Positions 5,079-64,000 of a DNA stretch of 64,000 nucleotides are shown here, piece after piece (within the stretch, counting starts at the first letter, position 1; the number at the start of each line of letters is the position of its first letter). The notes beneath the pieces were generated by a model that made no database searches, was not told the origin of the DNA, and was given only the letters and a program-made list of their open reading frames with translations. Location: NCBI GenBank assembly GCA_938002255.1, contig CALLAL010000016.1:75038-139037 (forward strand), in the 5' to 3' direction. This stretch comes from an uncultured bacterium. Its GTDB lineage: Bacteria; Desulfobacterota; BSN033; UBA1163. The translations under genes and the position numbers were made by a program.

Positions 5079-5546
5079 TCAAGAAAGGATTTTAATGCGA
5101 TTTTCTAATTCTTCAATTCGATTCTGAAGGAGCGAAGCTCTTTGTTTGAGGTCCGCTACTTCCTTTTGAAGATGTTCTTTGAGATCTATTTCTTTGTCCA
5201 GTTTCCCTTCGATTCTTTCGAGGTGTTTCTCAACTCCATCGAGGCGACCCTCGACCTTATCAAGGCGTTTATCAACCCCATCAAGACGAATTTCCACATG
5301 ACCAAGCCTTTTCTCAACTCCATCAAGGTGTTCCTCAATCCTCTGGATGGAAAAAGTAATGGTGTGGTATTCAGTCTCAAGCCGATCCAGTCGGTGATAA
5401 ATTTGGTCAAAGTGATTAAGAAGGTCAGCGAACTTCCTGTCGTGCTCTTCGAGTTTTTCGTTGATTTTATTGAATTGAGGTTCGATGACCTTTCCATAAA
5501 ATTCAATAAGGGTATCGGCCAAATCTTTCTTCGTAAGGAGGTCCAT
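5079..5546 (-). CDS. Coiled-coil protein with heptad repeats VExRLDx
   Basis: ORF 5079..5726 trimmed to internal ATG (MDLLTKKD, RBS AAGGA upstream) because the upstream 60 codons lie inside the repeat element at 5621-5845. Repeats VEKRLGH/VEIRLDG/VDKRLDK/VEGRLDG/VEKHLER/IEGKLDK. Confidence 0.5.
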   Translation of the reverse strand: MDLLTKKDLADTLIEFYGKVIEPQFNKINEKLEEHDRKFADLLNHFDQIYHRLDRLETEYHTITFSIQRIEEHLDGVEKRLGHVEIRLDGVDKRLDKVEGRLDGVEKHLERIEGKLDKEIDLKEHLQKEVADLKQRASLLQNRIEELENRIKILS

Positions 5547-5620
5547 CACGCATCCTTCATTTTCTTGTAGACAAACCTTATCACAATTTTTATTTTTGGT
5601 CAATCCTTTATGAAAACATT

Positions 5621-5845
5621 GTAACCCGTCAGTGATGGGGTGTGTTCGGTTTAAAAGGGTTGGAACGTTCCCCCTCCAAAACCTTGAATAGCGGTTATAA
5701 AAGGTTATCCTCATCGAAGGCCTCATGCCCTTTGAATCGGATTTTTTTAAATCAGATTGGGTCGTTTGACGAACAGAGGTTTCGCTTCAAGGTTTTTCCG
5801 AAGCAACCTCCCAACCCTTTTTTATTTCTTTAACTGAGGGGTTAC
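5621..5845 (+). mobile_element. MITE-like non-coding repeat, copy 1 (225 bp, 13-bp TIRs, 8-bp TSD AAAACATT)
   Basis: Left end GTAACCCGTCAGT and right end ACTGAGGGGTTAC are inverted repeats. Identical 8-mers AAAACATT flank it at 5613-5620 and 5846-5853. About 90% identical to copies at 14282-14507 and 29867-30091. Confidence 0.7.
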
Positions 5846-5963
5846 AAAACATTAAAAACTACTTCTCATCCTCTCATATCTATGTCATTCATCTTGATTC
5901 GATCTAATCATTGATCGGAGATTGACGGTTGTTTTAAAAAATGATACATAAGAATCAAACAAG

Positions 5964-6016
<53 letters not shown>

Positions 6017-6038
<22 letters not shown>

Positions 6039-7600
6039 ATTCCACTTGATCTTCCATAGGTTTCAGTCATTTCCAATAACATCTCTCCGTGGGAGGAAGT
6101 TAACTGCTCAGGTAAACATCTCCACTCCCAATTTCCTAATGGGGTGGCTGGACGGTTCATCCTGCCCTCTTGTCCCAACCTTAATATATCTTGAAGAGGA
6201 ATAATCATCAGGTCAGCCACAGACATCATTCCGAGACGAATGAGTTCAGTTGGAAATTGTTCTGAGGTTATTTCTCTTCCAAGATATCGAAAGACTCTTT
6301 TTTTATCTTCGGAAGATGCTTCTTGTTCGAACCATCCTCTCGCTGTATTGTTGTCGTGCGTTCCGGTATAGACGATGGTATGGGATATATAATTATGAGG
6401 GAGATAGGGGTGGGTTGGAGAGTCTTCCCCGAAGGCGAATTGAAGGACTCGCATGCCAGGGAAACCAAACCGATTCATGACCTCTTTCACATCCGGAGTG
6501 ATGATTCCAAGATCCTCTGCGATGAAGGAAGAGACCGGAAATTTTTTAAGGAGAGCAGTGAAAAAATCGTTTGCGGGTGCTTCGACCCATTTTCCGTTGA
6601 TGGCCGTTTTCTCTTCAGGAGCGATTTCCCAGAAACCGACGAACCCCCTGAAATGATCGAGACGTAAGACATCAAACAGACAGAGATTATGGGCAATACG
6701 ATCAAACCACCACTGGTAACCGGTCTGCTGCAGACAGTCCCATCGGAAGGTGGGATTTCCCCAAAGCTGGCCGGTTTTGCTAAAATAGTCCGGAGGGACA
6801 CCTGCTACTCCCAGAGGTTTTTTTTCACCATCCAGATTAAAGATTTCAGGGTGTGCCCACACATCAGCACTGTCATAGTTGACATAAATGGGGATATCGC
6901 CGATGAGTCGGACCCCTCGTTGATGGCAATCCTTTTTTAATGAGTACCACTGGATGAAGAAAAGATACTGGTAGAACTTTTCACGCTCGATATCCTCCTC
7001 CAGGCTTTTCTGAATCTCTTTGAGATAGCCAGAATTCCTGTCCCTCAGTTCTTTTTCCCATGTTCTCCAGGGCTTCCCTTTCAGGTGTTTCTTTAACGTC
7101 ACAAAAAGGGCAAAATCATCCAGCCATTTTATATTCTCCTGGCAGAATCTTTCGAAGTCGCCTGTTGCATTTGGGTGGTTTTTGAATGAATCGTAGGCGA
7201 GACGAAGCAGTCGAGATTTATATGGAATGACCACGTCAAAGTCACAACGTCCTTCTGGAAATGGAGGGATGGAGTCTATCTGCTGTTTGTTAAGAAACCC
7301 GGATTGGAATAAGAGTTCCGGACTGATGAGCAGGGGGTTGCCGGCAAAGGCAGAAGGAGTGCTATACGGAGAGTTCCCGTATGCTGGATCCGTTGGGTTA
7401 AGAGGCAGAACCTGCCAGTAGCTCTGTTTTGTCTGAGATAGAAAATCGATAAATCGTTGGGCTGAAGCACCCAAATCGCCAATGCCGAAAGGGGAGGGTA
7501 AGGAGGTAATATGAAGGAGGATGCCACTCGATCTTCTTAACATACATTTAATCTCAGGATGACCTTCGATGGCATTGATGATGGAGTTCATTATATCCAA
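6017..7600 (-). CDS. malQ: 4-alpha-glucanotransferase (amylomaltase, GH77)
   Basis: GH77 signatures GILLHITSLPSPFGIGDLG, LPLNPTDPAYGNSPYS, GDIPIYV and WGNPTFRWD. The 3' end overlaps tRNA-Thr on the opposite strand by about 22 nt. Confidence 0.8.
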
Positions 7601-9119: not shown

Positions 9120-9589
9120 AGATTCGGCCATTAATGCCCAAAGATAGAGAAAGACTTCGAAAGATCATCGTCGAAACAGGCGTTTTTACCGAAGAAGAGG
9201 TCGGAGTTGCAATGGAGTTGATAGACATTGTCCTTAACAATGGCCGCCAAAGGGATTATCAAATCGTATGTGCGGTTGATACACAAGACCAAGCGATGGG
9301 ATATATCTGTTTTGGTCCTGTGCCCATGACTGAGGGATCATTTGATTTATACTGGATTGTGGTTGATCCAACCGCTCAGGGTCGGGAGATCGGATCAGGG
9401 CTAATCGACTATCTGGAAAAAGAGGTCAGGGAACGGGGCGGAAGGATGATTCTTGCAGATACCTCTTCCATTCCTTCTTATAAAAAGGCACAGAGGTTCT
9501 ATCAAAAAAAAGGATTTCAGGAAGTAGCAAGAATTACCGATTATTACTGGACGGGGAATGACCGGATTACGTATTGTAAAAAGTTATAG
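9116..9589 (+). CDS. GNAT family N-acetyltransferase
   Basis: Start moved to ATG 9116, overlapping the upstream stop (ATGA). GNAT acetyl-CoA motif region QGREIGSGLIDYLEKEVRERGGRMILADT. Confidence 0.6.
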   Translation: MKIRPLMPKDRERLRKIIVETGVFTEEEVGVAMELIDIVLNNGRQRDYQIVCAVDTQDQAMGYICFGPVPMTEGSFDLYWIVVDPTAQGREIGSGLIDYLEKEVRERGGRMILADTSSIPSYKKAQRFYQKKGFQEVARITDYYWTGNDRITYCKKL

Positions 9590-13905: not shown

Positions 13906-14196
13906 CTATTTCTTCTTTTTTGCCATTTGTGCCTTCAGATCTTCAACCTGTTTTTTTAAAGCCTCGTTTTCCGCAGTCAGAGAAGTGATCGTGGCTTCTT
14001 TTTCGGCGGCTTTCTGAATCTCTTCTTTCAATTTTTGGACCTCAAGTTTCAGTTTATCATTATCTGATTTGAGGTTAGCGTTTTCTGCTTTCAATTTTTC
14101 ATTTTCGGCTTTGATGTCCGCTCCGCATCCAGTAAGGGCTGAGACAAGGATACCGATTAGAAATAGCGAAAGCATGACAGAGAGAGCCCTCTTCAT
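13906..14196 (-). CDS. Small coiled-coil lipoprotein
   Basis: Signal peptide with lipobox LTGC followed by a Lys/Glu-rich coiled coil (ENEKLKAENANLKSDNDKLKLEVQKLKEEIQ) and a poly-K C-terminus. Confidence 0.5.
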   Translation of the reverse strand: MKRALSVMLSLFLIGILVSALTGCGADIKAENEKLKAENANLKSDNDKLKLEVQKLKEEIQKAAEKEATITSLTAENEALKKQVEDLKAQMAKKKK

Positions 14197-14281
14197 TGTT
14201 GAATCACCTCCTTTTCGATAGTTTCTTATTGCCGATTATAATTCCCTCCCACTTAAAAATCAAATCTAATTCAATAGGCCA

Positions 14282-14507
14282 GTAACCCCTCAGTGATGGG
14301 GTGTTTTCGGTTTAAAAGGGTTGGAACGTTCCCCCTCCAAAACCTTGAATAGCGGTTATAAAAGGTTACCCCCATCGGGGCCCTCATGCCCTTTGAATCG
14401 GATTTTTTTGAATCAGATGTGGTCGTTTTGACGAACAGAGGTTTCGCTTCAAGGTTTTTCCGAAGCAACCTCCCAACCCTTTTTCATTTCTTTAATTGAG
14501 GGGTTAG
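14282..14507 (+). mobile_element. MITE-like non-coding repeat, copy 2 (degenerate right TIR, no clear TSD)
   Basis: GTAACCCCTCAGT ... AATTGAGGGGTTAG. Collinear with copies 1 and 3 over about 225 bp. ORF-track ORF 14271..14468 lies inside it and is judged spurious. Confidence 0.65.
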
Positions 14508-14570: not shown

Positions 14571-16112
14571 GTGAAGGAAATGGATGTCGGGAAAATTCTC
14601 ACCTTAACCGCTCGCAAGTTTCCCAATCGAGTCGCCCTCATCTGCGAAGATAAACGAATGACCTATCGAGAATACGAGGATCGGGTCAATCGACTGGCCA
14701 ATGGGCTTCTCCAGCTCGGTCTGAAAAAGGGGGACAGGGTGGCTGCTCTCCTTTTCAATTCCATCCCCATGGTTGAGATGTTCTTCGCCTGTGCGAAGAC
14801 CGGCGGCGTCTTTACGCCCATCAATTTCCGGTTTACCGCGGAGGAGGTTTTTTATATTCTCGACCATTCCGACGCACGGTTTTTTGTCTATGGAGAGGAG
14901 TTCTCAGGGCTTGTTGAGAAAGTCCGGCCGAAACTGACCAAAGTGGAATTCTCTATTTCCTTTAATAATGAAACCGCTCCTCCAATCTTACACTACGAAA
15001 CCTTTCTGGAAGAATCTCCAGCTCAGGAACCCGAGATCTTTCTATCGGAAAATGATGAATGCCAGTTGATGTATACCTCCGGAACCACTGGAAAACCAAA
15101 AGGGGCGATTCTCACGCATGAGAACCTCCTCTGGAATCTTTTTAATACCCTTCTGGGGAGGGAGGAGCAAGAGGGCGAGATCTCCATTGTCATCGGCCCC
15201 CTTTATCACACAGCCGCACTCAATAACCATTTCCTCACCCGCGTGGCCATGGCAGGAACGAGCATCCTCGTCAAACAATTCGACCCGATAAAGGTGATGG
15301 AAATCATCGAAAAGGAGAGAGCCACCGTCATTTCGGGTGCACCTGCTGCCTACCACCTCCTGTTCTCCCTTCCTGAAGGACAATATGATACCCGGTCCAT
15401 CACCAAATGCACGACAGGCGCTTCGATCCTCCCGAACGAGACAAAATTGCGGTTGGCTAAACTCTTCCCCAATCTCAAGGGCATTTATGATGTGTATGGT
15501 TGCACGGAGGCGACCCCTTCAATTGCCATCCTCAAAGCAAAGGACTCCCTGAAGAAGAAGGAATGTGTGGGAGCGGCAGTTCCATTCCTTGAAGTGAGGA
15601 TTGTGGATGATCAGGGTCAGGACCTTCCCGCCGGAGAGGTGGGAGAGGTGATCTGCCGGGGGCCCAATGTGATGAAGGGATACTATAAGGATGAGGAAGC
15701 CACCCGGGAGGCACTCCAGGGCGGATGGCTTCACACAGGAGATCTGGCCAGGATGGATGAGGAGGGGTTTATTTACATCGTTGACCGGAAGAAGGATATG
15801 ATTGTCAGCGGTGGAGAGAATATCTATCCCCGCGAGATTGAAGAGATCCTTTACTGCCATCCCAAGATCGAGGATGCCGCTATCATTGGCGTTCCGGATC
15901 CCCTCTGGGGAGAGTCGGTCAGGGCTGTCATCGTCCTTAAAAAAGGGGAGTCGATGACCGAGGAGGAGGTGATCGAATACTGCAAAAGTCATCTTGCCAG
16001 TTACAAAAAGCCAAAGTCAGTTGAATTTGTGGAGAGCCTTCCGAGAAATCCCTCAGGAAAGGTTCTAAAGACCTTATTAAGACAAAGATATCTAAAATTG
16101 ATTCCATCTTAG
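14571..16112 (+). CDS. Acyl-CoA synthetase / AMP-dependent ligase
   Basis: AMP-binding motif YTSGTTGKPKGAILTHENL, GEVGEVICRGPNVMKGY, and C-terminal PSGKVLK lysine motif. Confidence 0.8.
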   Translation: MKEMDVGKILTLTARKFPNRVALICEDKRMTYREYEDRVNRLANGLLQLGLKKGDRVAALLFNSIPMVEMFFACAKTGGVFTPINFRFTAEEVFYILDHSDARFFVYGEEFSGLVEKVRPKLTKVEFSISFNNETAPPILHYETFLEESPAQEPEIFLSENDECQLMYTSGTTGKPKGAILTHENLLWNLFNTLLGREEQEGEISIVIGPLYHTAALNNHFLTRVAMAGTSILVKQFDPIKVMEIIEKERATVISGAPAAYHLLFSLPEGQYDTRSITKCTTGASILPNETKLRLAKLFPNLKGIYDVYGCTEATPSIAILKAKDSLKKKECVGAAVPFLEVRIVDDQGQDLPAGEVGEVICRGPNVMKGYYKDEEATREALQGGWLHTGDLARMDEEGFIYIVDRKKDMIVSGGENIYPREIEEILYCHPKIEDAAIIGVPDPLWGESVRAVIVLKKGESMTEEEVIEYCKSHLASYKKPKSVEFVESLPRNPSGKVLKTLLRQRYLKLIPS

Positions 16113-18420: not shown

Positions 18421-20286
18421 GTGGAATCTATGAATCATTTTCTTTTCATTGCGAAAAAGGGAGTGTGGATTATTGCCGTTCTCATGTCAGCCTACCACCT
18501 TTATGCTGGAGCCTTTGGTGTCCCTGAGGCAATGATGCACCGTTCCATTCATCTCATCTTCACCCTCGTCTTGATCTTTTTGGTGGGGATGACAAGCGGA
18601 GAGAAACAGTCCAAAGGAAAGATTGGCCTCCATCTTCTTCTCCTTCTCCTCACCCTCTTATCTCTTGGCTATGTCTTTCTCAATTATGACTATATTGTCA
18701 CTCGCTATCCGTATGTTCATCCTGTAAGCACCTGGGACTTTACCATGGGAATGATCCTTACCCTGATTCTTTTAGAGGCTTCGAGAAGAATGCTCGGGTG
18801 GGCCTTGCCTCTGACTGCCATCGGGTTTCTCCTCTATGCCATTTTTGGAAATTACCTTCCAGGGCTCCTGAGGCATACCGGATTCAGCCTGGATACGATC
18901 ATCGATCAGCTCTACTTAACCACTGAGGGAATTTTCGGAATTCCCATGGGTGTCTCAGCCACCTATGTCATCCTCTTTGTCATCTTTGGCGCCTTTTTAG
19001 AACAGTCCGGCACAGGCCAGTTCTTCATGGATTTTGCAACCTCTCTGGTGGGAGGAGCGAAGGGTGGTCCAGGGAAAATCTCCTGTGTCTCTTCGAGCCT
19101 CTTCGGAACGATTTCAGGAAGTGCAGTGGCCAATGTGATGGTAGACGGCTGGTTGACCATCCCTCTGATGAAGAGAACCGGATTTAAACATGATTTTGCT
19201 GCAGCAGTAGAAGCGACGGCTTCCACCGGAGGACAGATTATGCCTCCGGTCATGGGTGCAGCTGCATTTGTGATTGCGGAGTACACCGGAATTTCATACA
19301 TCAATATCTGTAAACATGCCTTAATCCCAGCTTTTCTCTATTATGTGGCTCTCTTCATGGCCATCCATTTTGAGGCTTTGAGGACAGGATTGCTTGGAGT
19401 TCCGAAAAATGAAAGACCCCGGTTGAAATCGGTCGTTGTGACGAGAGGACACCTCTTTATTCCACTGGTCGTGATCATCTACTTCATGTTAGCAGGATAT
19501 ACGCCAATGTATGCCTGTATCTTTGCCACCATTTCAGTGGTCCTTGTTGCCCTGGTCCGGTCGGAAACCCGTATGGGATTGATTAAAATTCTTGAGGCTC
19601 TTGAGTTCGGAGCAAAAAACATGCTGCCGGTAGCTGCAGCCTGTGCCTGCGCAGGCATTGTGGTCGGGGTAATCAATCTGACCGGACTGGGACTGAAGTT
19701 TACCAGCCTCATCCTTTTCATTGCGGGCGATTCCCTTGCCCCTGCTCTTGTCTTTACGATGATTGCCGGGATTATTCTCGGAATGGGGCTTCCCACGACA
19801 GCAGCCTATATCGTCCAGGCTGCACTGTTGATTCCCGCCCTGATCAAATTAGGGGTACCGGTCATTGCAGCCCATCTCTTCGTCTTCTATTTTGCCATCA
19901 TCTCAGCGATTACCCCCCCGGTCGCCATGGCGGTCTATGCGGCCGCGGGCATTAGCGGCTCAAATCTCTGGAAGACAGGCATGGCTGCGATGAAGATTGG
20001 AGCGACCGGTTTTGTCGTCCCCTTTATGTTCGTTTACGGCCCTTCACTTCTGCTCATCGGTTCTCCTGCAAGCATTATCACGACCATTCTCTCCGCATCG
20101 GTTGGAGTCATTCTTCTTTCAGCCGGACTGATGGGATGGTTATTCAAAGAGGCAACCTTGCTGGAGAGGGGGATGCTCATTGCCGGAGCCATCTGCCTTA
20201 TCAAACCAGACCTTTACACAGATGCAGTGGGAGTCATGTTACTGGTCATTGTGATCATCCTCCAGAAGTATTGGCATCGTTCATGA
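18421..20286 (+). CDS. TRAP transporter fused permease subunit (TAXI-associated)
   Basis: 621-aa polytopic membrane protein with DctM-like 12-TM core plus N-terminal small-subunit-like helices. Immediately downstream of the TAXI receptor. Confidence 0.75.
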   Translation: MESMNHFLFIAKKGVWIIAVLMSAYHLYAGAFGVPEAMMHRSIHLIFTLVLIFLVGMTSGEKQSKGKIGLHLLLLLLTLLSLGYVFLNYDYIVTRYPYVHPVSTWDFTMGMILTLILLEASRRMLGWALPLTAIGFLLYAIFGNYLPGLLRHTGFSLDTIIDQLYLTTEGIFGIPMGVSATYVILFVIFGAFLEQSGTGQFFMDFATSLVGGAKGGPGKISCVSSSLFGTISGSAVANVMVDGWLTIPLMKRTGFKHDFAAAVEATASTGGQIMPPVMGAAAFVIAEYTGISYINICKHALIPAFLYYVALFMAIHFEALRTGLLGVPKNERPRLKSVVVTRGHLFIPLVVIIYFMLAGYTPMYACIFATISVVLVALVRSETRMGLIKILEALEFGAKNMLPVAAACACAGIVVGVINLTGLGLKFTSLILFIAGDSLAPALVFTMIAGIILGMGLPTTAAYIVQAALLIPALIKLGVPVIAAHLFVFYFAIISAITPPVAMAVYAAAGISGSNLWKTGMAAMKIGATGFVVPFMFVYGPSLLLIGSPASIITTILSASVGVILLSAGLMGWLFKEATLLERGMLIAGAICLIKPDLYTDAVGVMLLVIVIILQKYWHRS

Positions 20287-29067: not shown

Positions 29068-29835
29068 TCATTTTTTCCCTTTCACGCCTTCGCCAGTCAT
29101 GGGGACGAAGAGGACCGGGATGACATCCGTCGTCTCTATCTTCCCCGATCGTTTAACAATCTTTTTCAATTCCTGGGAGTATGTTCCTACGGGAACGACG
29201 AGCCGCCCGCCTTCTTTGAGTTGATCGAGGAGGGGCTCGGGAATGTGGTCGGGCGCACAGGTAACCATAATGGCATCAAAAGGAGCATGTTCAGGCCATC
29301 CTAAATACCCGTCGCCCGCCTTCACCTGAATGTTTTGGTAGCCCAGCTCCATGAGCAGGGTTTTAGCTGTGGAGGCGAGCGTTTCAATGATCTCGATGGT
29401 ATAAACCTCTTTGGCCAACTCTGCAAGAATGGCAGCCTGGTATCCTGACCCCGTGCCAATCTCCAACACCCTCTCTTTTCCTTTCAGGTCTAATAACTCC
29501 GTCATCAGGGCCACGATGTATGGCTGGGAGATGGTCTGCCCTTCTCCGATGGGAAGCGGTTGGTCCGAATAGGCTTGGGATTCGTAAGATTTGGGGACGA
29601 AGCGATGGCGTTCAACCTTCAGCATGGCGGAAAGGACCCGTTCATCCTTAATTCCCCGGCTTTTGATCTGCGTTTCGACCATCTTTTGGCGCATGGCTTG
29701 GAAGTCCTTTTCGGAATCCGATGAGGGATGCCATCTCACTCCATCACAGTTGGCTGTAAGAGCCAACAGGAGCATCCCGATAAGAATGATCAAGACTTTC
29801 CCCTTCATTAAAAAAAGGTTATCATAATTTTGCAA
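29068..29835 (-). CDS. pcm: Protein-L-isoaspartate O-methyltransferase with N-terminal signal peptide
   Basis: PIMT motifs VLEIGTGSGYQAAILAEL and GGRLVVPVG. N-terminal hydrophobic leader (KVLIILIGMLLLALTANC) absent from cytoplasmic Pcm. Confidence 0.8.
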   Translation of the reverse strand: MQNYDNLFLMKGKVLIILIGMLLLALTANCDGVRWHPSSDSEKDFQAMRQKMVETQIKSRGIKDERVLSAMLKVERHRFVPKSYESQAYSDQPLPIGEGQTISQPYIVALMTELLDLKGKERVLEIGTGSGYQAAILAELAKEVYTIEIIETLASTAKTLLMELGYQNIQVKAGDGYLGWPEHAPFDAIMVTCAPDHIPEPLLDQLKEGGRLVVPVGTYSQELKKIVKRSGKIETTDVIPVLFVPMTGEGVKGKK

Positions 29836-29866
29836 GACCTGTCAATTTTTGAACTTGAGTTGACAG

Positions 29867-30091
29867 TAATCCCTCAGTTATGGGGTGTTTTCGGTTTTAA
29901 AGGGTTGGAACGTTACCCCTCCAAAACCTTGAATAGCGGTTATAAAAGGTTACCCTCATCGGGGTCCTCAGGCCCTTTGAATCGGATTTTTTTGAATCAG
30001 ATTGGGTCGTTTTGACAAACAGAGGTTTCGCTTCAAGGTTTTTCCGAGGCAACCTCCCAACCCTTTTTTATTTCTTTAACTGAGGGGTTAC
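29867..30091 (+). mobile_element. MITE-like non-coding repeat, copy 3 (9-bp TSD AGTTGACAG)
   Basis: TAATCCCTCAGT ... ACTGAGGGGTTAC with AGTTGACAG direct repeats at 29858-29866 and 30092-30100. Lies between divergent pcm and TPR genes. ORF-track ORF 29830..30015 inside it is judged spurious. Confidence 0.7.
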
Positions 30092-30137
30092 AGTTGACAG
30101 GGCTTTAATCTTTCTGATAATTTTTTATAAAGACAGG

Positions 30138-33100
30138 ATGGTTATGTTCAAGAGATTAGCGAAACTGATCAGCCTCTTTCTCCTTCTTTCGGTCGCTCTC
30201 TCTTTGACGACCCTTGAAAGCCAGGATCAACCCCGAGGCCGAATGCGATCGCAGGAAATTATTTTTTTAGGAAGAGACGAGACCAAATGGATCGAAGGGC
30301 GTGACATTCCCCTTCCCCTTATCGTCGCTCAAGGAGTCAAACAGGAAGCCACGTTAGAGATGTTTGACCTTAGGGAAGATCAGATCGGTCCCATGAGGAA
30401 AATGAGTCCTTCAACCACCCAACCCGGTTGTGCTTATACCAGTCGCCTCACAGGGGGGATGACGAGCAGTGATAAAGCTTTTTATGAGAGAGGAAGATAC
30501 TCCTACTTACAGGGAGAGTACGAGAAAGCCATTCAACTCTTTCGGCGTTTGATAGAGGAACACCCCGAGAGCCTCATGAAAGGTTCAACTCTCTATTGGA
30601 TGGGAGAGGCAAAGTACCAGCTGGGAAAAATCGAGGAGGCTTTTACCGATTTTAAAAGAGTGATAGATGAATTTCCCGAAAATGAATTTATTTCCTACGC
30701 TCTCTATTCTTGCGGTTGGATCCAGCTCAGACGGGGATTGTTTGAGGAAGGAAGCCGATTTTTTCGAAGGGCGTACGATAAAAATCCTGCCCTTTCTATT
30801 GCCCAGTCTTCCCTCTTCTGGTCAGGGTATTGTCTTTATCACCTGGGACGATATGCAGAAGCGATGAGGGAGATCGAGACTCACCTCCAACACTATCCAG
30901 AAGGCATCTGGAGGCCCGAAGCAGAATATCTCTTAGGAGTGACCACCTTTAGACTCCAGAAATACGAAGAGGCGGCGGCACTTTTTAGAAACTTCTTAAG
31001 ACGCTATCCTCGCCATCCTCTGGAAGAGAGTGGCCGTTATGCTCTGGCATGGTGCCAGGTCTCCCTTGGACACTATGCAGAGGGGCGGAAAACATTCGAA
31101 GAGATCCTTCTCCATTTCCCCGCCACCCCTTTGTCCGATCCTATCTTCTGGGGAGTGGTGAAGACGTATCTTGGGGAGAACGAGGTAGAAAAGGCAACCC
31201 AGTTCTACCAGAGATTTCTTTCCCAATTTCTCATTTCCCCATGGGCGGAGCGATGTCTTTTCGATATTGGACGATACTATTTTGACCAAAAGGAGTATTC
31301 CCTTGCTGTCGTCACGTTCAGGCAATTTCTAAAAACGTATCCAGAAAATGATCTTCAAGAATGGGTCTATTTTATGTTGGGGGAATCCCTGTTCAATCAG
31401 AAGAATTATGCCGATGCGATTGGTGCCTACCGGCAAGTCTTATGGTTGAAAAGGATGGCGCAACTTGAGGATCGGGTTTATGGGAGGTTAGGATATTGCC
31501 ATTTTCTATTGAAACAATATGATGAGGCCATCGGGTATTGGGAAAGATTCCTCAGAGAATTTCCAGACCATCCCGAAAAGAATGAAATCCTTTACTGGTT
31601 GGCAGAAAGTCATCTGATTAAAGAAGATTATCGCCATGCCGTTCAATATGTGGACCGATTGAAGGACGTTCCTTCCCTTTATCCCAAAAGCCTAACGAGT
31701 TTAGGGTGGTACCATTTTCAAAAAGGAGAATGGAAGGAGGCCAATCAATATTTTCTCAAGATTTTATCTGAATTTCCAGAATACCGCTCCTCTCCTCCTC
31801 TCCCCCTTTTGATTGGTCAATGTTTTTTAAATCAGAATGATTACGGGCAGGCCAAAATTTATTTAGAACGTCTCATCCAATCCCCTGATGAAGAGGGAAA
31901 GGAAAAGGGTTTCTATCTGTTGGGATGGATTGCTTACCGGGAAGAACGGTTCGATGATGCTTTAAATTACTTCCAAACTCTACAGGCTTCTTTTCCCTCA
32001 AGTTCCTATCACGATGAAGCTCAGTATTGGATCGGCTGGTCCTATTTTCGGAAAAAGAATTTTATAAAAGCCGTTGAAGCCTTCCGTGTGGTCGTAAGGC
32101 AATTTCCCCAAAGTCCATTTGTTCCGTCTTCCCTATTGAAGATCGGTGACAGTTATTACAATGTAAAACAGTATGGGAATGCGATCCAATTCTATCAGCA
32201 GTTGATTCGAGAATACGGTAAGTCGAAGGAAGCGCCTGAAGCGGAGTATGGCATCCTCCTCTCCTATCTTCAGGAGAAGAGATACGACCTCTTTGTTAGC
32301 CGAGTGGAGGCCTTCGTCAAACGTTACCCTCAGCACTCCCTCTCGGGTCAAGCGCTCATGCAATTGGGAGATTATTTCCAGCAGTCGCGGGCTCTTGATA
32401 AAGCTCTCAAAACGTATCAAGAGGTCATCCGACTTCATCCTCATAGCCAAGGGGCAGAAGAGGCTCAATTTCGACTCGCTCTCCTTCTGAAGATGGAGAG
32501 GCGTTGGTCCGAAGCCTTAGAGGAGATGGAGCGATTTATCAAACATTACCCAAAAAGCCACCTCCTGATGGATGCCTGTTTAGAGGCAGGGGATCTCCAT
32601 CTGTTGCTTAAAGCTTATCCGAAAGCATTGGACTATTTTGATGGCGTGAGGCGAAATTCGGGAAAGCCGTTGTTCATACAGAAAAGTCTTTTAGGGATGG
32701 AAGAGGCCTATCGGGGCCTTGGCAAGTTAGAAGAGGCTGAGAAGGTGTTAAAGGAGTTGATAGACAAATTTCCTCATGATGAGTTGCGGTTCGAAGCACA
32801 TTTCAGGATCGGTCTCCTTGCTCTTTCTCAGAAGCGATTTTCCGATGCCATCCCTTCTTTTTTTGCAGCCTCGAAAAGTCCTGAAGAAAGAATCGCCAGT
32901 CAGACCCAATTTAAACTTGGAGAGGCCTATATGGGTTTAGGTCATCGAGAGACCGCGATCCTCCAGTTTTCGAAAGTTCTTTATCTCTATCCCCACCTTA
33001 CTGAATTGGGTGAAGAATCTCTTTTAAGATTAGGGACCCTCTACATGGAAACAAAAAGGTTTTCCGAAGCCAAACAGGTTTATCAAAAACTCTTAGACCG

Positions 33101-33176
33101 GACAAGCCGTGAAGATCGGAAAAGGATGGCTAAACAGATGCTCCATCAGATTCAGCAGGAGGCCACTCGTCCATGA
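30138..33176 (+). CDS. Large secreted tetratricopeptide-repeat (TPR) protein
   Basis: Signal peptide, 1012 aa. More than 15 TPR-like 34-aa repeats (recurrent W/Y-x-x-G-x-x-Y/F-x-x-x-x-Y-x-x-A patterns). Confidence 0.7.
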   Translation: MVMFKRLAKLISLFLLLSVALSLTTLESQDQPRGRMRSQEIIFLGRDETKWIEGRDIPLPLIVAQGVKQEATLEMFDLREDQIGPMRKMSPSTTQPGCAYTSRLTGGMTSSDKAFYERGRYSYLQGEYEKAIQLFRRLIEEHPESLMKGSTLYWMGEAKYQLGKIEEAFTDFKRVIDEFPENEFISYALYSCGWIQLRRGLFEEGSRFFRRAYDKNPALSIAQSSLFWSGYCLYHLGRYAEAMREIETHLQHYPEGIWRPEAEYLLGVTTFRLQKYEEAAALFRNFLRRYPRHPLEESGRYALAWCQVSLGHYAEGRKTFEEILLHFPATPLSDPIFWGVVKTYLGENEVEKATQFYQRFLSQFLISPWAERCLFDIGRYYFDQKEYSLAVVTFRQFLKTYPENDLQEWVYFMLGESLFNQKNYADAIGAYRQVLWLKRMAQLEDRVYGRLGYCHFLLKQYDEAIGYWERFLREFPDHPEKNEILYWLAESHLIKEDYRHAVQYVDRLKDVPSLYPKSLTSLGWYHFQKGEWKEANQYFLKILSEFPEYRSSPPLPLLIGQCFLNQNDYGQAKIYLERLIQSPDEEGKEKGFYLLGWIAYREERFDDALNYFQTLQASFPSSSYHDEAQYWIGWSYFRKKNFIKAVEAFRVVVRQFPQSPFVPSSLLKIGDSYYNVKQYGNAIQFYQQLIREYGKSKEAPEAEYGILLSYLQEKRYDLFVSRVEAFVKRYPQHSLSGQALMQLGDYFQQSRALDKALKTYQEVIRLHPHSQGAEEAQFRLALLLKMERRWSEALEEMERFIKHYPKSHLLMDACLEAGDLHLLLKAYPKALDYFDGVRRNSGKPLFIQKSLLGMEEAYRGLGKLEEAEKVLKELIDKFPHDELRFEAHFRIGLLALSQKRFSDAIPSFFAASKSPEERIASQTQFKLGEAYMGLGHRETAILQFSKVLYLYPHLTELGEESLLRLGTLYMETKRFSEAKQVYQKLLDRTSREDRKRMAKQMLHQIQQEATRP

Positions 33177-43918: not shown

Positions 43919-44537
43919 TCTTTTTAAGCATCGGAATGAGATCCATCATCGTTATCCTGATATCTGGCACCTTAAGATTCTCAGGAAGCGATTTCCTTTG
44001 ATGCTTCAAAACCTCAGGGATGGAGCAAGAGTGCTTGACGTCGGGGCTTCCAACCGAGATCTCGAAGGCCGTTTAAAGAAATATTATCCGAATCTTATCT
44101 ATCGAAGCATGGACATCGATCAAACACAATTTCACGATTATTATCGGTTTGAGGACATTCAAGAAAGATACGACGTCGTGTTTCTTTTTGAAGTGATCGA
44201 GCACCTCCCTTTAGAAGAAGGACTGGAGATGGTGGAGAAAATCTATGCACTTCTTAAAGAGGGAGGGAGGCTCCTTTTGACGACTCCCAACATTTTTAAT
44301 CCTGGTCGGTACTGGCGGGATGCGACACACAGACAGGCTTATTGTTATGATGAGTTAGGTGGAATCCTGATGGCCCAAGGATTTTCAATCAAGGAGATGT
44401 ATCGAACCTACAGCGATGCTTTCCACCGCTATCTGTTCCGAGTCTATGTGATGGCTCCTCTCCACCGTTATCTGGGAATTGATTTTGCGAAATCGATTTT
44501 AATTGTGGCCATCAAGGGGGAAGAGAAGCAACGATGA
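43896..44537 (+). CDS. Class I SAM-dependent methyltransferase
   Basis: VLDVGASNRDLEG (motif I), VVFLFEVIEHLP, LKEGGRLLLTTPN. Confidence 0.65.
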   Translation: MRKISWSDLFKHRNEIHHRYPDIWHLKILRKRFPLMLQNLRDGARVLDVGASNRDLEGRLKKYYPNLIYRSMDIDQTQFHDYYRFEDIQERYDVVFLFEVIEHLPLEEGLEMVEKIYALLKEGGRLLLTTPNIFNPGRYWRDATHRQAYCYDELGGILMAQGFSIKEMYRTYSDAFHRYLFRVYVMAPLHRYLGIDFAKSILIVAIKGEEKQR

Positions 44538-45523
44538 ACCTCATTTTTCTCACCCATTCTAGTGACCAAGGACACCGATTCCGGGTCGAGCAATATTTTC
44601 CCCTTCTCCGACACCATCAGGTGAACCCCGTATGGCAGCCCCTTCCTCCCTCCATAAAGAATCGGATATCGATTTATCAAAAGCTTCGGGAGTTTGATAT
44701 CGTCTGTATTCAGAGGCGATTACTCTCTCCTCTGGAATTTTTGTGGGTCCGAAAGAAATCGAAAAAGATTCTCTTTGATCTCGACGATGCCATCATGTAT
44801 CGTTCCCCCAGTTCCCCTTATCCCCATTCTTTTTCAAGATGGATCAAATTTAAATGGATGGTGAGGGGAAGTGACGCCGTGATTGCAGGAAATCATTTTC
44901 TTCGCGAAGAAGTCTTCAAAGCCGATCCTCATAAAAGGGTTTTTATTATTCCAACTCCAGTTGACCTCAAGGCTTATCCTCTTAAAAAAGAGGTTACCCC
45001 CTCTGCCGAAATGAACATCGGCTGGATTGGAACCAAAGGAAATTTAAGATATCTTCAAGCTCTGGAACCTGTTTTCAAAATCCTTGCCCCTCGATTCCCA
45101 AACGTAAAATTGAAAGTGGTCAGTAATGGTCTATTCGAATCCCAGTTTATTCCGACGGTGAACAAGCCCTGGGTTTTGGAGGAAGAAAACCAGGATTTAA
45201 TTTCTTTTGACATCGGTCTGATGCCTCTGGAGGATCATCTGTGGTCAAGGGGAAAATGTGGGTTGAAAATTATCCAATATCTAAGCGTGGGCCTTCCGGT
45301 GGTCTGTTCCCCTGTGGGAATGAATCGGGATATCATCAAGCATGGCGTCAATGGATTCTGGGCGGGTACCCCAACGGAATGGATGAAATATATCCAAACG
45401 CTTTTGCAGGATACTGGCTTAAGAAAAGAGATGGGACTTCGGGGGATTGAAACCGTTCAAGAAGGGTACAGTCTCGAGGTAAACTTCCATAAACTTCTGC
45501 AGGTTCTGGAGTCACTGGCTTAG
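44534..45523 (+). CDS. Glycosyltransferase (GT-B, GT4-like), paralog A
   Basis: C-terminal GLKIIQYLSVGLPVVCSPVGMNRDIIKHGVNGF. About 35-40% identical to the next gene. Confidence 0.6.
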   Translation: MNLIFLTHSSDQGHRFRVEQYFPLLRHHQVNPVWQPLPPSIKNRISIYQKLREFDIVCIQRRLLSPLEFLWVRKKSKKILFDLDDAIMYRSPSSPYPHSFSRWIKFKWMVRGSDAVIAGNHFLREEVFKADPHKRVFIIPTPVDLKAYPLKKEVTPSAEMNIGWIGTKGNLRYLQALEPVFKILAPRFPNVKLKVVSNGLFESQFIPTVNKPWVLEEENQDLISFDIGLMPLEDHLWSRGKCGLKIIQYLSVGLPVVCSPVGMNRDIIKHGVNGFWAGTPTEWMKYIQTLLQDTGLRKEMGLRGIETVQEGYSLEVNFHKLLQVLESLA

Positions 45524-45537
45524 AGGGTGTTGGTTCT

Positions 45538-46551
45538 ATGAAAGTCCTTTTTTTCATTCAGGGATTTTCCGTTGCGGCCAGCCGTTATCGAGTGCTTCAA
45601 TATCTACCCTATCTTAAATCCCGAGGCGTGGAGCCCACGGTTCAGGTTTATCCAAAAACCCTCAAGGACCATCTTCAATGGTTCAAATTGCTTCCTCAAT
45701 ATGATATTGTTTTTTTACAGAGAAAGCGGTTCAATCAACCCAGACTCGGACTTTTGCGCAGAAGGGCAAAAAAAATCATTTATGACTTCGACGATGCCGT
45801 GATGTATCGAAACTCCAAATCTGGCCAACCCATCTCTTCCTCACGCAGGAGGCGATTTGTTCAAATGATCCGGGCCTCCGATTTTGTCATTGCCGGGAAT
45901 GAATTTTTAAAGTATGAAGTTCAAGCCCTTCATCCTCGTGTGGAAGTCATTCCAACACCTATTGATATCAGCCGGTATCGGCCTAAAGCCTACCTCATCC
46001 AACCGGAACGAGTCACCTTAGGGTGGATCGGGGATCATGGATCCATTCACTATCTTGAAAAAATGAAGCCAGTCTTTAATCGGCTTGGCAAGAAATATCC
46101 CCACGTCGATCTCAAGATCGTCTGCGATATCTTTTTCGATTGCGATTCCATCAGGGTGATTAAAAAGGATTGGAAAGCAGAGGAAGAAGTCTTAGACCTT
46201 CAGAGTTTTGATATTGGGGTGATGCCTCTGGTCGATGATCCTTGGTCCTGGGGAAAATGTGGATTAAAAATTATCCAATATCAGGGGGTTGGTGTTCCGG
46301 TGGTTTGCACACCGGTCGGAATCAATAGGGATTTGGTGGAGGATGGGGTAAATGGATTTTATGCAATGACTCCGGAAGAGTGGGAGGAAAAACTTTCCTT
46401 GTTGATTGAAGATGCCTCCCTGAGGGAAAGAATGGGTCAGGAAGGGCGAAAGCGGGTCTTAAAGGGCTATACCCTTCAAGCCTGTGCCCCTAAATTGTTT
46501 TCTATTCTTCAGCGAGTTTCTGAAATGTCCGAAATGGAGAGTGTTCCTTGA
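45538..46551 (+). CDS. Glycosyltransferase (GT-B, GT4-like), paralog B
   Basis: Collinear with 44534..45523 (YRVLQYLPYL versus FRVEQYFPLL, GLKIIQYQGVGVPVVCTPVGINRDLVEDGVNGF). Confidence 0.6.
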   Translation: MKVLFFIQGFSVAASRYRVLQYLPYLKSRGVEPTVQVYPKTLKDHLQWFKLLPQYDIVFLQRKRFNQPRLGLLRRRAKKIIYDFDDAVMYRNSKSGQPISSSRRRRFVQMIRASDFVIAGNEFLKYEVQALHPRVEVIPTPIDISRYRPKAYLIQPERVTLGWIGDHGSIHYLEKMKPVFNRLGKKYPHVDLKIVCDIFFDCDSIRVIKKDWKAEEEVLDLQSFDIGVMPLVDDPWSWGKCGLKIIQYQGVGVPVVCTPVGINRDLVEDGVNGFYAMTPEEWEEKLSLLIEDASLRERMGQEGRKRVLKGYTLQACAPKLFSILQRVSEMSEMESVP

Positions 46552-55178: not shown

Positions 55179-55631
55179 ATGCATCAGAGGTTAAGGGAAG
55201 AGGTCATTAACATGTTGGCAAACTTTTTTTCAGAGCATCATAAAACATACGGGATTGAAATGGTTTTTCTATACGGTTCTTGGGCGGCGGGGGTTCCTAA
55301 AGAGGAGTCAGATGTGGATATTGCCATTGTGTTTAAAAAAGAGTGTCCTACAGAGGAAGAGCTGTTCCAGAGTCTAAATCATTTAACACTCTCCTTAACC
55401 AAAGAGACGGGGTTGGAAGTGAACGCCATCCCAATCCTGCCGGATTTTCCTAAACCGATGCTTTACTACAATGCGATTGTTTCAGGGATACCGATTTTCA
55501 TCAGGGATCTTTTTCGATATGCAGGGATTAAGAATGAAGCCATCCATCAAATGGAAGATTTTAGCATTTTCGGCACAAAATGGCAGCTTCAGTGTGCCCG
55601 AAGGACCCTGGAGGGGTTAAAACATGGCTGA
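55179..55631 (+). CDS. MNT-type nucleotidyltransferase antitoxin
   Basis: Minimal NTase motif FLYGSWAAGVPKEESDVDIAIVF (GS-x(n)-DxD). Confidence 0.7.
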   Translation: MHQRLREEVINMLANFFSEHHKTYGIEMVFLYGSWAAGVPKEESDVDIAIVFKKECPTEEELFQSLNHLTLSLTKETGLEVNAIPILPDFPKPMLYYNAIVSGIPIFIRDLFRYAGIKNEAIHQMEDFSIFGTKWQLQCARRTLEGLKHG

Positions 55632-56055
55632 ATATCGATACGCAAAAGGAAGAATTGCAGAATCGATCCAATTTATAACACAGGAGTTAAAGGAGTTTGA
55701 AGAGGAGTATGCAAACCGAAAGTGGACAGAATATCAAAATGACCGGAAACTCCAAAAATTAACCGATCGAACAGTTGAAAATATCTTAACCGCCCTCATT
55801 GAGGTTTGTGGAACGGTGTTAACCGAAGAGGGAATATCAGCAGATAGCTACAGTGAGATATTAAGAAAATGTGGCAGGTATTTTCATTTCAAAGAGGAAG
55901 AGCAGGATGATTTGGCTAAGCTTGCCCTTCAACGAAACCGGCTTGCCCACCGCTATCTCAATTTTCGCTGGCAAGCCATTAAAATGTTTAATGACCAAAA
56001 AGAGTTGGTCAAAAAACTTCTTGAAATGATTTTAGAAAGAGAGGAAGCGAAATAA
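55624..56055 (+). CDS. HepT (DUF86) toxin of HepT/MNT toxin-antitoxin pair
   Basis: R-x4-HxY motif RNRLAHRY near the C-terminus. Gene overlaps the MNT gene by 8 nt. Confidence 0.7.
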   Translation: MAEYRYAKGRIAESIQFITQELKEFEEEYANRKWTEYQNDRKLQKLTDRTVENILTALIEVCGTVLTEEGISADSYSEILRKCGRYFHFKEEEQDDLAKLALQRNRLAHRYLNFRWQAIKMFNDQKELVKKLLEMILEREEAK

Positions 56056-63707: not shown

Positions 63708-64000
63708 CATGCCCAAGACAATAGGGGTTGCAGAAGTGAAAAAACAATTTTCAGAGGTGATCAGCAAGGTCTCCTTAAAGGGAGAACATTTTATTATTGA
63801 GAAAAAAGGCAAGCCAATGGCCGCCATAGTTAGCTTAAAAGACCTCGACATGATTGAATCGCCGAAGAAAAAAGGGGAGAAGAAGGGCTTGTTATCAGCG
63901 ATCGGTGCGTGGGAAGACTTTGAAAACCTCGAAGAGATGGTTGCGATGATTTATGAACGACGAGGAAGGGCAAAAGAACGGAGGATAGGGAGGCTTGTCT
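63708..64000 (+). CDS. Phd/YefM-family antitoxin (partial, runs off window end)
   Basis: MPKTIGVAEVKKQFSEVISKV...GEHFIIEKKGKPMAAIVSLKDLDMIE is typical of the Phd/YefM N-terminal fold. GTGAGG RBS upstream. Confidence 0.5.

Follow-up and report, generated by a model that had tools for sequence, protein, structure and literature searches.

A sequence of about 225 bp that recurs three times between genes in the DNA of an uncultured bacterium related to sulfate reducers raises the question of whether it arrived there by transposition or is kept in place for what its DNA or RNA does. The window, by which we mean the whole analyzed stretch of 64,000 nucleotides, has a G+C content of 45.8%. A protein search with PBP1A leads, at 70-80% amino-acid identity, to MAGs assigned by label to Deltaproteobacteria, Thermodesulfobacteriota, Syntrophaceae or Syntrophorhabdus, the nearest carrying the labels 'Deltaproteobacteria RBG_16_49_23', 'Syntrophaceae' and 'Syntrophorhabdus sp.'. 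Related MAGs include CAYZFX01 (locus L007), VGSS01 (L005), MGQQ01 and JAGXTA01, and near-identical contigs (99.8-100%) are present in the ENA assemblies ERZ6863697 and ERZ6864144 and in the Logan run ERR9287890. The initial annotation took the repeats for a MITE, a proposal now supported by extra copies, 8-bp duplications, empty sites in relatives and the absence of an Rfam match. In our view, the repeats are very probably a ~226-bp non-coding MITE family of an uncultured Thermodesulfobacteriota lineage that has transposed between genes. This reading is based on the terminal repeats, the 8-bp duplications, the multiple copies and their star-like divergence, the empty sites, the lack of coding capacity and the lack of a transposase in the window.

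The three copies lie in the same orientation, as originally described, and their pairwise identity of 93-94% (alignment, repeat search and self-BLAST) is above the "roughly 90%" first given. The boundaries of copies 1 and 2 stand, and copy 3 begins at 29866 rather than at 29867. No fourth copy was detected in the window (blastn, word 7, E<=10). Intergenic placement holds for all three, and each copy sits between divergently transcribed genes. The copies, with the ends, flanking repeats and internal arms that bear on their interpretation, are as follows.

5621..5845, + strand: putative MITE, copy 1, 225 bp, between a coiled-coil protein gene (5079-5546, -) and tRNA-Thr(CGT) (5964-6038, +)
14282..14507, + strand: putative MITE, copy 2, 226 bp, between a lipoprotein gene (13906-14196, -) and an acyl-CoA synthetase gene (about 14571-16112, +)
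29866..30091, + strand: putative MITE, copy 3, 226 bp, between a PCMT methyltransferase gene (29068-29808, -) and a TPR protein gene (30138-33176, +)
5613..5620, no strand: left target-site duplication of copy 1, AAAACATT, exact (8/8) with 5846-5853
5846..5853, no strand: right target-site duplication of copy 1, AAAACATT
5621..5633, + strand: left terminal inverted repeat of copy 1, GTAACCCGTCAGT, one mismatch against the consensus GTAACCCCTCAGT
5833..5845, - strand: right terminal inverted repeat of copy 1, ACTGAGGGGTTAC
29858..29865, no strand: left target-site duplication of copy 3, AGTTGACA, exact (8/8) with 30092-30099, including a TTGACA -35-like hexamer
30092..30099, no strand: right target-site duplication of copy 3, AGTTGACA, its TTGACA being the first hexamer of a promoter-like site (30094-30121) upstream of the TPR gene
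5653..5688, + strand: left conserved internal arm of copy 1, AAAAGGGTTGGAAnnTTCCCCCTCCAAAACCTTGAA, pairing with 5786-5821 and nearly invariant in diverged copies of other genomes
5786..5821, + strand: right conserved internal arm of copy 1, TTCAAGGTTTTTCCGnnnnAACCTCCCAACCCTTTT

The copies start with GTAA(C/T)CC(C/G)TCAGT and end with A(C/T)TGAGGGGTTA(C/G). The 13-bp terminal inverted repeats reported at the outset are borne out, since both consensus ends carry them and they are perfect there (left, GTAACCCCTCAGT; right, ACTGAGGGGTTAC), as in MITEs, with mismatches in copies 1 and 2. The right terminus of copy 2 is mutated at two positions (ATTGAGGGGTTAG; ..GGTTAG), its last base being changed. 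The perfect 8-bp direct repeat that had been noticed around copy 1 is indeed exact, and copy 3 has an exact duplication of its own, AGTTGACA, that the initial annotation had passed over. Copy 2 is without one, its flanks reading ATAGGCCA and ACGTAAAA. The chance of an 8/8 flank match is 1.5e-5 per copy, and that of a match at 7/8 or better is 3.8e-4. Duplication length is fixed at 8 bp, as MITEs require, with 8/8 matches in three population copies (two of them in the window) and in an element of the related locus L005 described below, and with 7/8 matches in three copies (in loci L081, L083 and L007).

With a length of 225-226 bp and no coding capacity, the element is also of MITE size. Internal reading frames differ among the copies through indels and no ORF is conserved, so the ORFs within the copies (5642..5833, 14271..14468 and 29830..30015), like the N-terminal extension of 5079..5726, are artefacts, as first proposed, and a coding element is ruled out. 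The true start of ORF 5079..5726 is the ATG at 5546 (MDLLTKKDL...), which matches the L007 orthologue. For annotation, the family is therefore of practical value, as it creates these spurious ORFs and the false extension. The genes around copy 1 have peculiarities of their own. The coiled-coil gene (5079-5546) contains three 42-bp (14-codon) tandem units with LDGVEKRL-type heptads at 5226-5336, and its orthologues in the related loci L002 and L003 have three ~60-bp tandem units near their 5' ends instead, indicating that the repeat content of this gene varies between species. On the other side, at 6017-6038, the 3' end of tRNA-Thr(CGT) (5964-6038, +) overlaps the stop-proximal end of a 4-alpha-glucanotransferase ORF (6017-7600, -) by about 20 bases.

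Further copies, for which a search had been proposed, were found elsewhere in the population and in related genomes. An exact core 23-mer (CCTTGAATAGCGGTTATAAAAGG) has no match in genome or metagenome contig collections, which omit the window genome. An nhmmer search of related loci returned one full-length copy, L007:17874-18096, that is 75-76% identical and is flanked by AAAGTATT and AAAATATT (7/8). A 19-mer common to the window and L007 copies led to ten metagenome contigs with real copies. Three extra loci (L081, L082 and L083) were reached through a protein-collection search with the 65-aa ORF artefact of copy 2; they come from the same ENA samples, have 45-47% G+C and hold three full copies and one half copy, which are placed in the same genome by shared sample, G+C content and sequence similarity only.

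L081:1966-2190: full copy, flanked by ATGAATCC and ACGAATCC (7/8)
L082:9881-10106: full copy, flanked by CTCTAAAG (8/8)
L083:9882-10106: full copy, flanked by CAATTCAG and CATTTCAG (7/8)
L083:14400-14524: 3' half copy, with TTTTGAC on both sides (7-bp repeat)

At least four contigs of one metagenomic population thus carry six full copies and a half copy, a multi-copy distribution such as defines MITEs. Among these seven, three of which lie in the window, the duplications match at 8/8 in three, at 7/8 in two and over 7 bp in the half copy. Identity among the six full copies is 91-96%, and every one departs from the consensus by 6-12 mostly private changes, a star-like pattern as after one amplification burst. 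The family has left its mark on assemblies as well. One contig of this population (L074) starts within copy 1 and breaks off in copy 2, and another (L075) breaks off in copy 1, showing that assemblers treat the element as a repeat; in five of the ten metagenome contigs carrying the family, the contig end cuts the element. The family breaks metagenome assemblies of this lineage, and recognizing it improves both gene calls and MAG contiguity. An 88.7-kb contig of ERZ6864144 ends, at L073:1-32, in 32 bases upstream of tRNA-Thr that are unlike the window. These bases probably come from a different tRNA locus, joined on in assembly where copy 1 breaks the graph.

The initial annotation had also suggested that related genomes be compared for empty sites, and each of the three window insertions has one in a relative with the same flanking genes, so that presence and absence at orthologous sites, as in MITEs, are seen for every window copy. 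The site of copy 1 is empty in L002, L003 and L017, where the tRNA-Thr and coiled-coil genes are kept and the place of the element is taken by some 30 bp containing one AAAAAATT-like sequence. The site of copy 2 is empty in L007 and L019, with both promoters kept, that of the lipoprotein gene (TTGATT-N17-TATAAT) and that of the acyl-CoA synthetase gene. The site of copy 3 is empty in L012, in which the PCMT and TPR genes diverge from back-to-back -35 boxes, TGTCAA-TCC-TTGACA; in the window, the duplicated AGTTGACA includes the L012-type TTGACA, and a promoter-like TTGACA-N16-GATAAT remains to the right of the element.

The tRNA-Thr site is occupied in L007 too, by an element that uses the same 8-bp target and is inverted relative to the same flanking genes. 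Its identity is 76% forward versus 56% reverse, the latter to be read against the 55% that a copy shows with its own reverse complement. Position 5 of the duplication is C in both window repeats and T in both L007 repeats, which makes two separate insertions at one hot spot appear somewhat likelier than an insertion followed by a flip in place. Apart from the element, the DNA of the coiled-coil gene 5' end is near-identical by eye between the window (5079-5546) and L007 (18180-18300), the PBP1A proteins are 76% identical and the whole 1.1-kb region is 71% identical. The near-identity of the coiled-coil 5' end suggests strong local constraint or recent exchange.

Other small elements have entered the same spots. 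L005 (VGSS01000001) holds at 9385-9548, orthologous to copy 2, a 164-bp MITE-like element flanked by a perfect 8-bp duplication, TTTAAAAA. Its interior, with two G+C-rich hairpins, is unrelated to the window family, and its ends, GTAATGCGTCAGTTATGGAAGGT and GTAATCCCTCAGTCATGGAGGT, match the window-family left end over about 22 bp. Common ends around an unrelated interior point to the ends, not the interior, as the shared mobilization signal. A lone terminal repeat, GTAACCCCTCAGA, is found at the copy 2 spot in L017 together with a synteny break. Terminal-repeat variants change on both ends together (CTCAAT in L007, CTCCGT in L065), and these paired variants and the shared ends would fit elements that share a transposase. 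The lipoprotein-promoter spot of L003 carries yet another insert, of ~150 bp. The relatives also have a ~80-bp repeat family (ATTTATCAATGGATTTCTAATCTGTGTAATCGG...AGATTTCTGGACTTTTTCAGAAATCTC), absent from the window, whose copies are 79-88% identical to one another and are located at L002:7953-8036, 1478-1561 and 20083-20153, L005:2922-2998, L017:17978-18047 and L018:3561-3623; an L002 copy occupies the lipoprotein-promoter hot spot of window copy 2.

The insertions are concentrated between divergent promoters. Divergent regions make up 25% of the native intergenic DNA of the window and hold three of the three window copies (p = 0.016). Eight of 11 independent copies are so placed (p about 1e-3), or 9 of 12 with the L007 copy (p about 4e-4), values that become 0.03 and 0.015, respectively, if the divergent share is set at 40%. 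In the window, the insertion points lie 0-20 bp from -35-like hexamers, as judged from flank reading and promoter scans. Among the copies in and beyond the window, three duplications overlap TTGACA. The family marks intergenic hot spots between divergent promoters that small elements have hit repeatedly. Such clustering just upstream of -35 hexamers could arise from a target preference or from the survival of harmless insertions.

The imperfect palindrome described for the interior is real. The arm pairs named at first, AAAAGGGTTGG/CCAACCCTTTT and AAAACCTTGAA/TTCAAGGTTTT, were recovered in a repeat search, in which 36-nt arms about 97 nt apart are 78-81% complementary, and folding beats dinucleotide shuffles, with z scores of -3.6 as DNA and of -3.0 and -5.0 as RNA for the two strands. 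Across genomes, two ~40-nt arms are almost invariant, compared to 60-75% conservation of the termini and center, and the conservation of the left arm is in part ascertainment, as the scan used a 19-mer from that arm. This observation speaks against the MITE reading, since arms so much better conserved than termini would be unusual if the tips alone mattered for transposition. It invites the idea that the MITE has been domesticated, the host keeping the copies for a function borne by the arms, as a protein-binding or insulating module between divergent promoters or as a bidirectional terminator of hairpin and T-run. The excess of copies between divergent genes (9 of 12, p about 4e-4 to 1e-3, the divergent share of native intergenic DNA being 25%) and the TTTTTTATTT that follows the right arm would suit such a role. 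However, the arms hold 11 of 49 private differences within one population, versus 37% expected by length, and this deficit is mild and close to the neutral share; it makes conservation of the arms more likely to reflect what the source element needed for moving than a host function. Close relatives, moreover, have empty sites with intact promoters, and two species carry the element in opposite orientations at the tRNA-Thr site. Promoter scans found no promoter-like site within the copies, for which reason we dropped an internal promoter from consideration, and terminator-like matches within the element are weak hairpins only, mostly in the left terminal repeat. Taken with the part that the scan 19-mer has in left-arm conservation, these observations lead us to regard domestication as improbable.

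The hairpin could instead be the product itself, with the repeats serving as structured non-coding RNA genes or cis-regulatory RNAs. The RNA folding scores given above speak for this, as do 6 of 56 consensus pairs in which RNAalifold finds pair-keeping changes on both sides. Those pairs, however, fall in the terminal repeats and arms, where transposon ends co-vary anyway, and the covariation energy term is only -0.32 kcal/mol; changes on both sides between the two ends would fit co-evolving transposon ends or a base-paired hairpin alike. The element has no Rfam match, either at the gathering score or at E<=1, has no promoter-like site inside it or at a fixed distance, and is found both ways round with respect to the same neighboring genes. 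Exact 8-bp direct repeats and empty sites are, furthermore, not something that RNA genes create, and we give the RNA reading very little credence. The pattern that had been put forward as contrary to a mobile insertion, namely no more than three copies without empty sites, or an RNA that covaries and keeps its synteny, is not the one observed.

Invertible segments such as fimS of Escherichia coli and the capsule promoters of Bacteroides offer a further comparison. Like them, the element is short, has inverted repeats at its boundaries, lies in a promoter region, here between divergent promoters, and is seen in both orientations at one orthologous site, that of tRNA-Thr in the window genome and L007. 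A site-specific recombinase flipping the segment could then switch the divergent neighbor genes. Unlike in those systems, though, the two orientations are split between species, and three independent population assemblies agree on a single one. The window encodes no recombinase domain, and an invertase is missing nearby, as is a promoter-like site within the element. The difference at duplication position 5 fits two insertions better than a flip. Target-site duplications and empty sites, a further difference from those systems, show arrival by transposition. An inverton is accordingly a highly unlikely account of the family. A REP/BIME-type reading was ruled out, as these repeats are without terminal inverted repeats and 8-bp duplications.

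The MITE reading, to which we return, places the family in a familiar context. The Correia elements of Neisseria and RUP of Streptococcus pneumoniae are bacterial MITEs. The class is a well-known one, as illustrated by MITEPsy1/2 of Pseudomonas syringae (PMC3189936). With such elements the present family shares a size within 100-300 bp, the absence of coding sequence, terminal inverted repeats, target-site duplications, many intergenic copies and a hairpin-forming interior. Bacterial MITEs are mobilized in trans by an IS transposase, as the present family would be. The duplication is 8 bp long, versus 2 bp (TA) in Correia and 4 bp in MITEPsy1, and, unlike known MITEs, the family has no similarity to the annotated records searched (Rfam and plasmids), resides in a Thermodesulfobacteriota host and has subterminal arms that are better conserved than its tips. 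All testable features that define a MITE are present, bar the partner element.

We infer for this family a DDE mechanism with mobilization in trans. A DDE-type transposase, encoded elsewhere or now lost, would recognize the ~13-22-bp terminal inverted repeats (GTAAYCCCTCAGTnATGGGG) and probably also the conserved subterminal arms. Staggered cuts 8 bp apart would then insert the element, and repair of the gaps would yield the 8-bp target-site duplication. As they now stand, the copies seem to be carried along passively rather than to act as genes.

The lack of a transposase in the window, stated at the start, is upheld: no transposase or recombinase domain occurs among Pfam annotations and scans that cover nearly all genes, and Pfam together with a direct scan of ten proteins (39.8-50.7 kb) returned housekeeping and polysaccharide-synthesis genes. 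No transposase-like ORF adjoins any metagenome copy. The terminal-repeat form expected at partner-element ends, in inverted orientation, is GTAAYCCCTCAGT. In the window and in about 1 Mb of related loci, no two terminal repeats (<=2 mismatches) lie at IS-like spacing, and the window, the ~1 Mb of loci, viral contigs and plasmids yielded no autonomous element with such ends; plasmid records likewise gave no match to the consensus in a distant-mode search. Terminal-repeat matches at window positions 9341 and 16045 are chance occurrences inside an acetyltransferase gene and an acyl-CoA synthetase gene, respectively. Four matches in viral contigs have no copy or matching second end, the one in L077 lying in long open sequence, and look like chance as well.

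The family to which the partner belonged may be sought from the ends. Members of the IS66 family have inverted repeats of 20-30 bp that start with GTAAGCG, and they give 8-bp direct repeats (PMC11946415); the repeat of ISPsk01, an IS66 example, is GTAAGCGTCCGG... (PMC12888890). The element resembles them in its 8-bp target duplication and in ends that start with GTAA, and one end of the L005 element reads GTAATGCGTCAG. However, where IS66 ends read GTAAGCG, those of the element read GTAAYCCCTC, or GTAA(C/T)(C/G)C(C/G)TC, and match in GTAA only; no tnpA, tnpB or tnpC gene or DDE_Tnp_IS66 protein was found linked to the element ends. As the GTAAGCG signature is missing, we do not file the element under IS66, which it resembles in duplication length only. 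From duplication length and GTAA ends, a transposase partner of IS66 type is tentatively suggested, at somewhat under even chances. On IS66-derived MITEs, the literature offered general background only. Elements of the IS256 type give duplications of 8-9 bp, and a partner of this type may be an alternative to IS66.

A bolder reading, which we think conceivable yet unlikely, is that the transposase targets DNA just upstream of -35 hexamers between divergent genes and that the arms, not the tips, are the recognition or structural signal. Such targeting would explain the recurrent hits at the same spots across lineages, the two orientations at the tRNA-Thr site and the variety of small elements at the lipoprotein promoter. 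Promoter-directed targeting is well known in eukaryotic retroelements and, to our knowledge, is barely documented for bacterial DDE elements. If the bias reflects targeting, not survivorship, the family would lend itself to studying how a bacterial transposase chooses its targets. As it stands, the family is an ordinary type of mobile DNA, well supported and of modest general interest unless the promoter bias is true targeting. It attests to recent transposon activity in an uncultured Thermodesulfobacteriota group and provides dated insertions with empty-site controls.

Beyond the family, the window has a polysaccharide-synthesis operon on the + strand, from about 38 kb to 63.5 kb. A 153-nt direct repeat with 76% identity (45205-45357 and 46206-46358) reflects two adjacent paralogous group-1 glycosyltransferase genes of this operon, at 44534-45523 and 45538-46551. 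The operon region also contains toxin-antitoxin pairs, at 55179-56055 and 63709-64000, the types being nucleotidyltransferase/HepT (MNT-HEPN) and PhdYeFM antitoxin with PIN toxin, the toxin coming after the antitoxin just beyond the end of the window. Farther along, at L076:13901-14909, is a second Polbeta/HepT pair.
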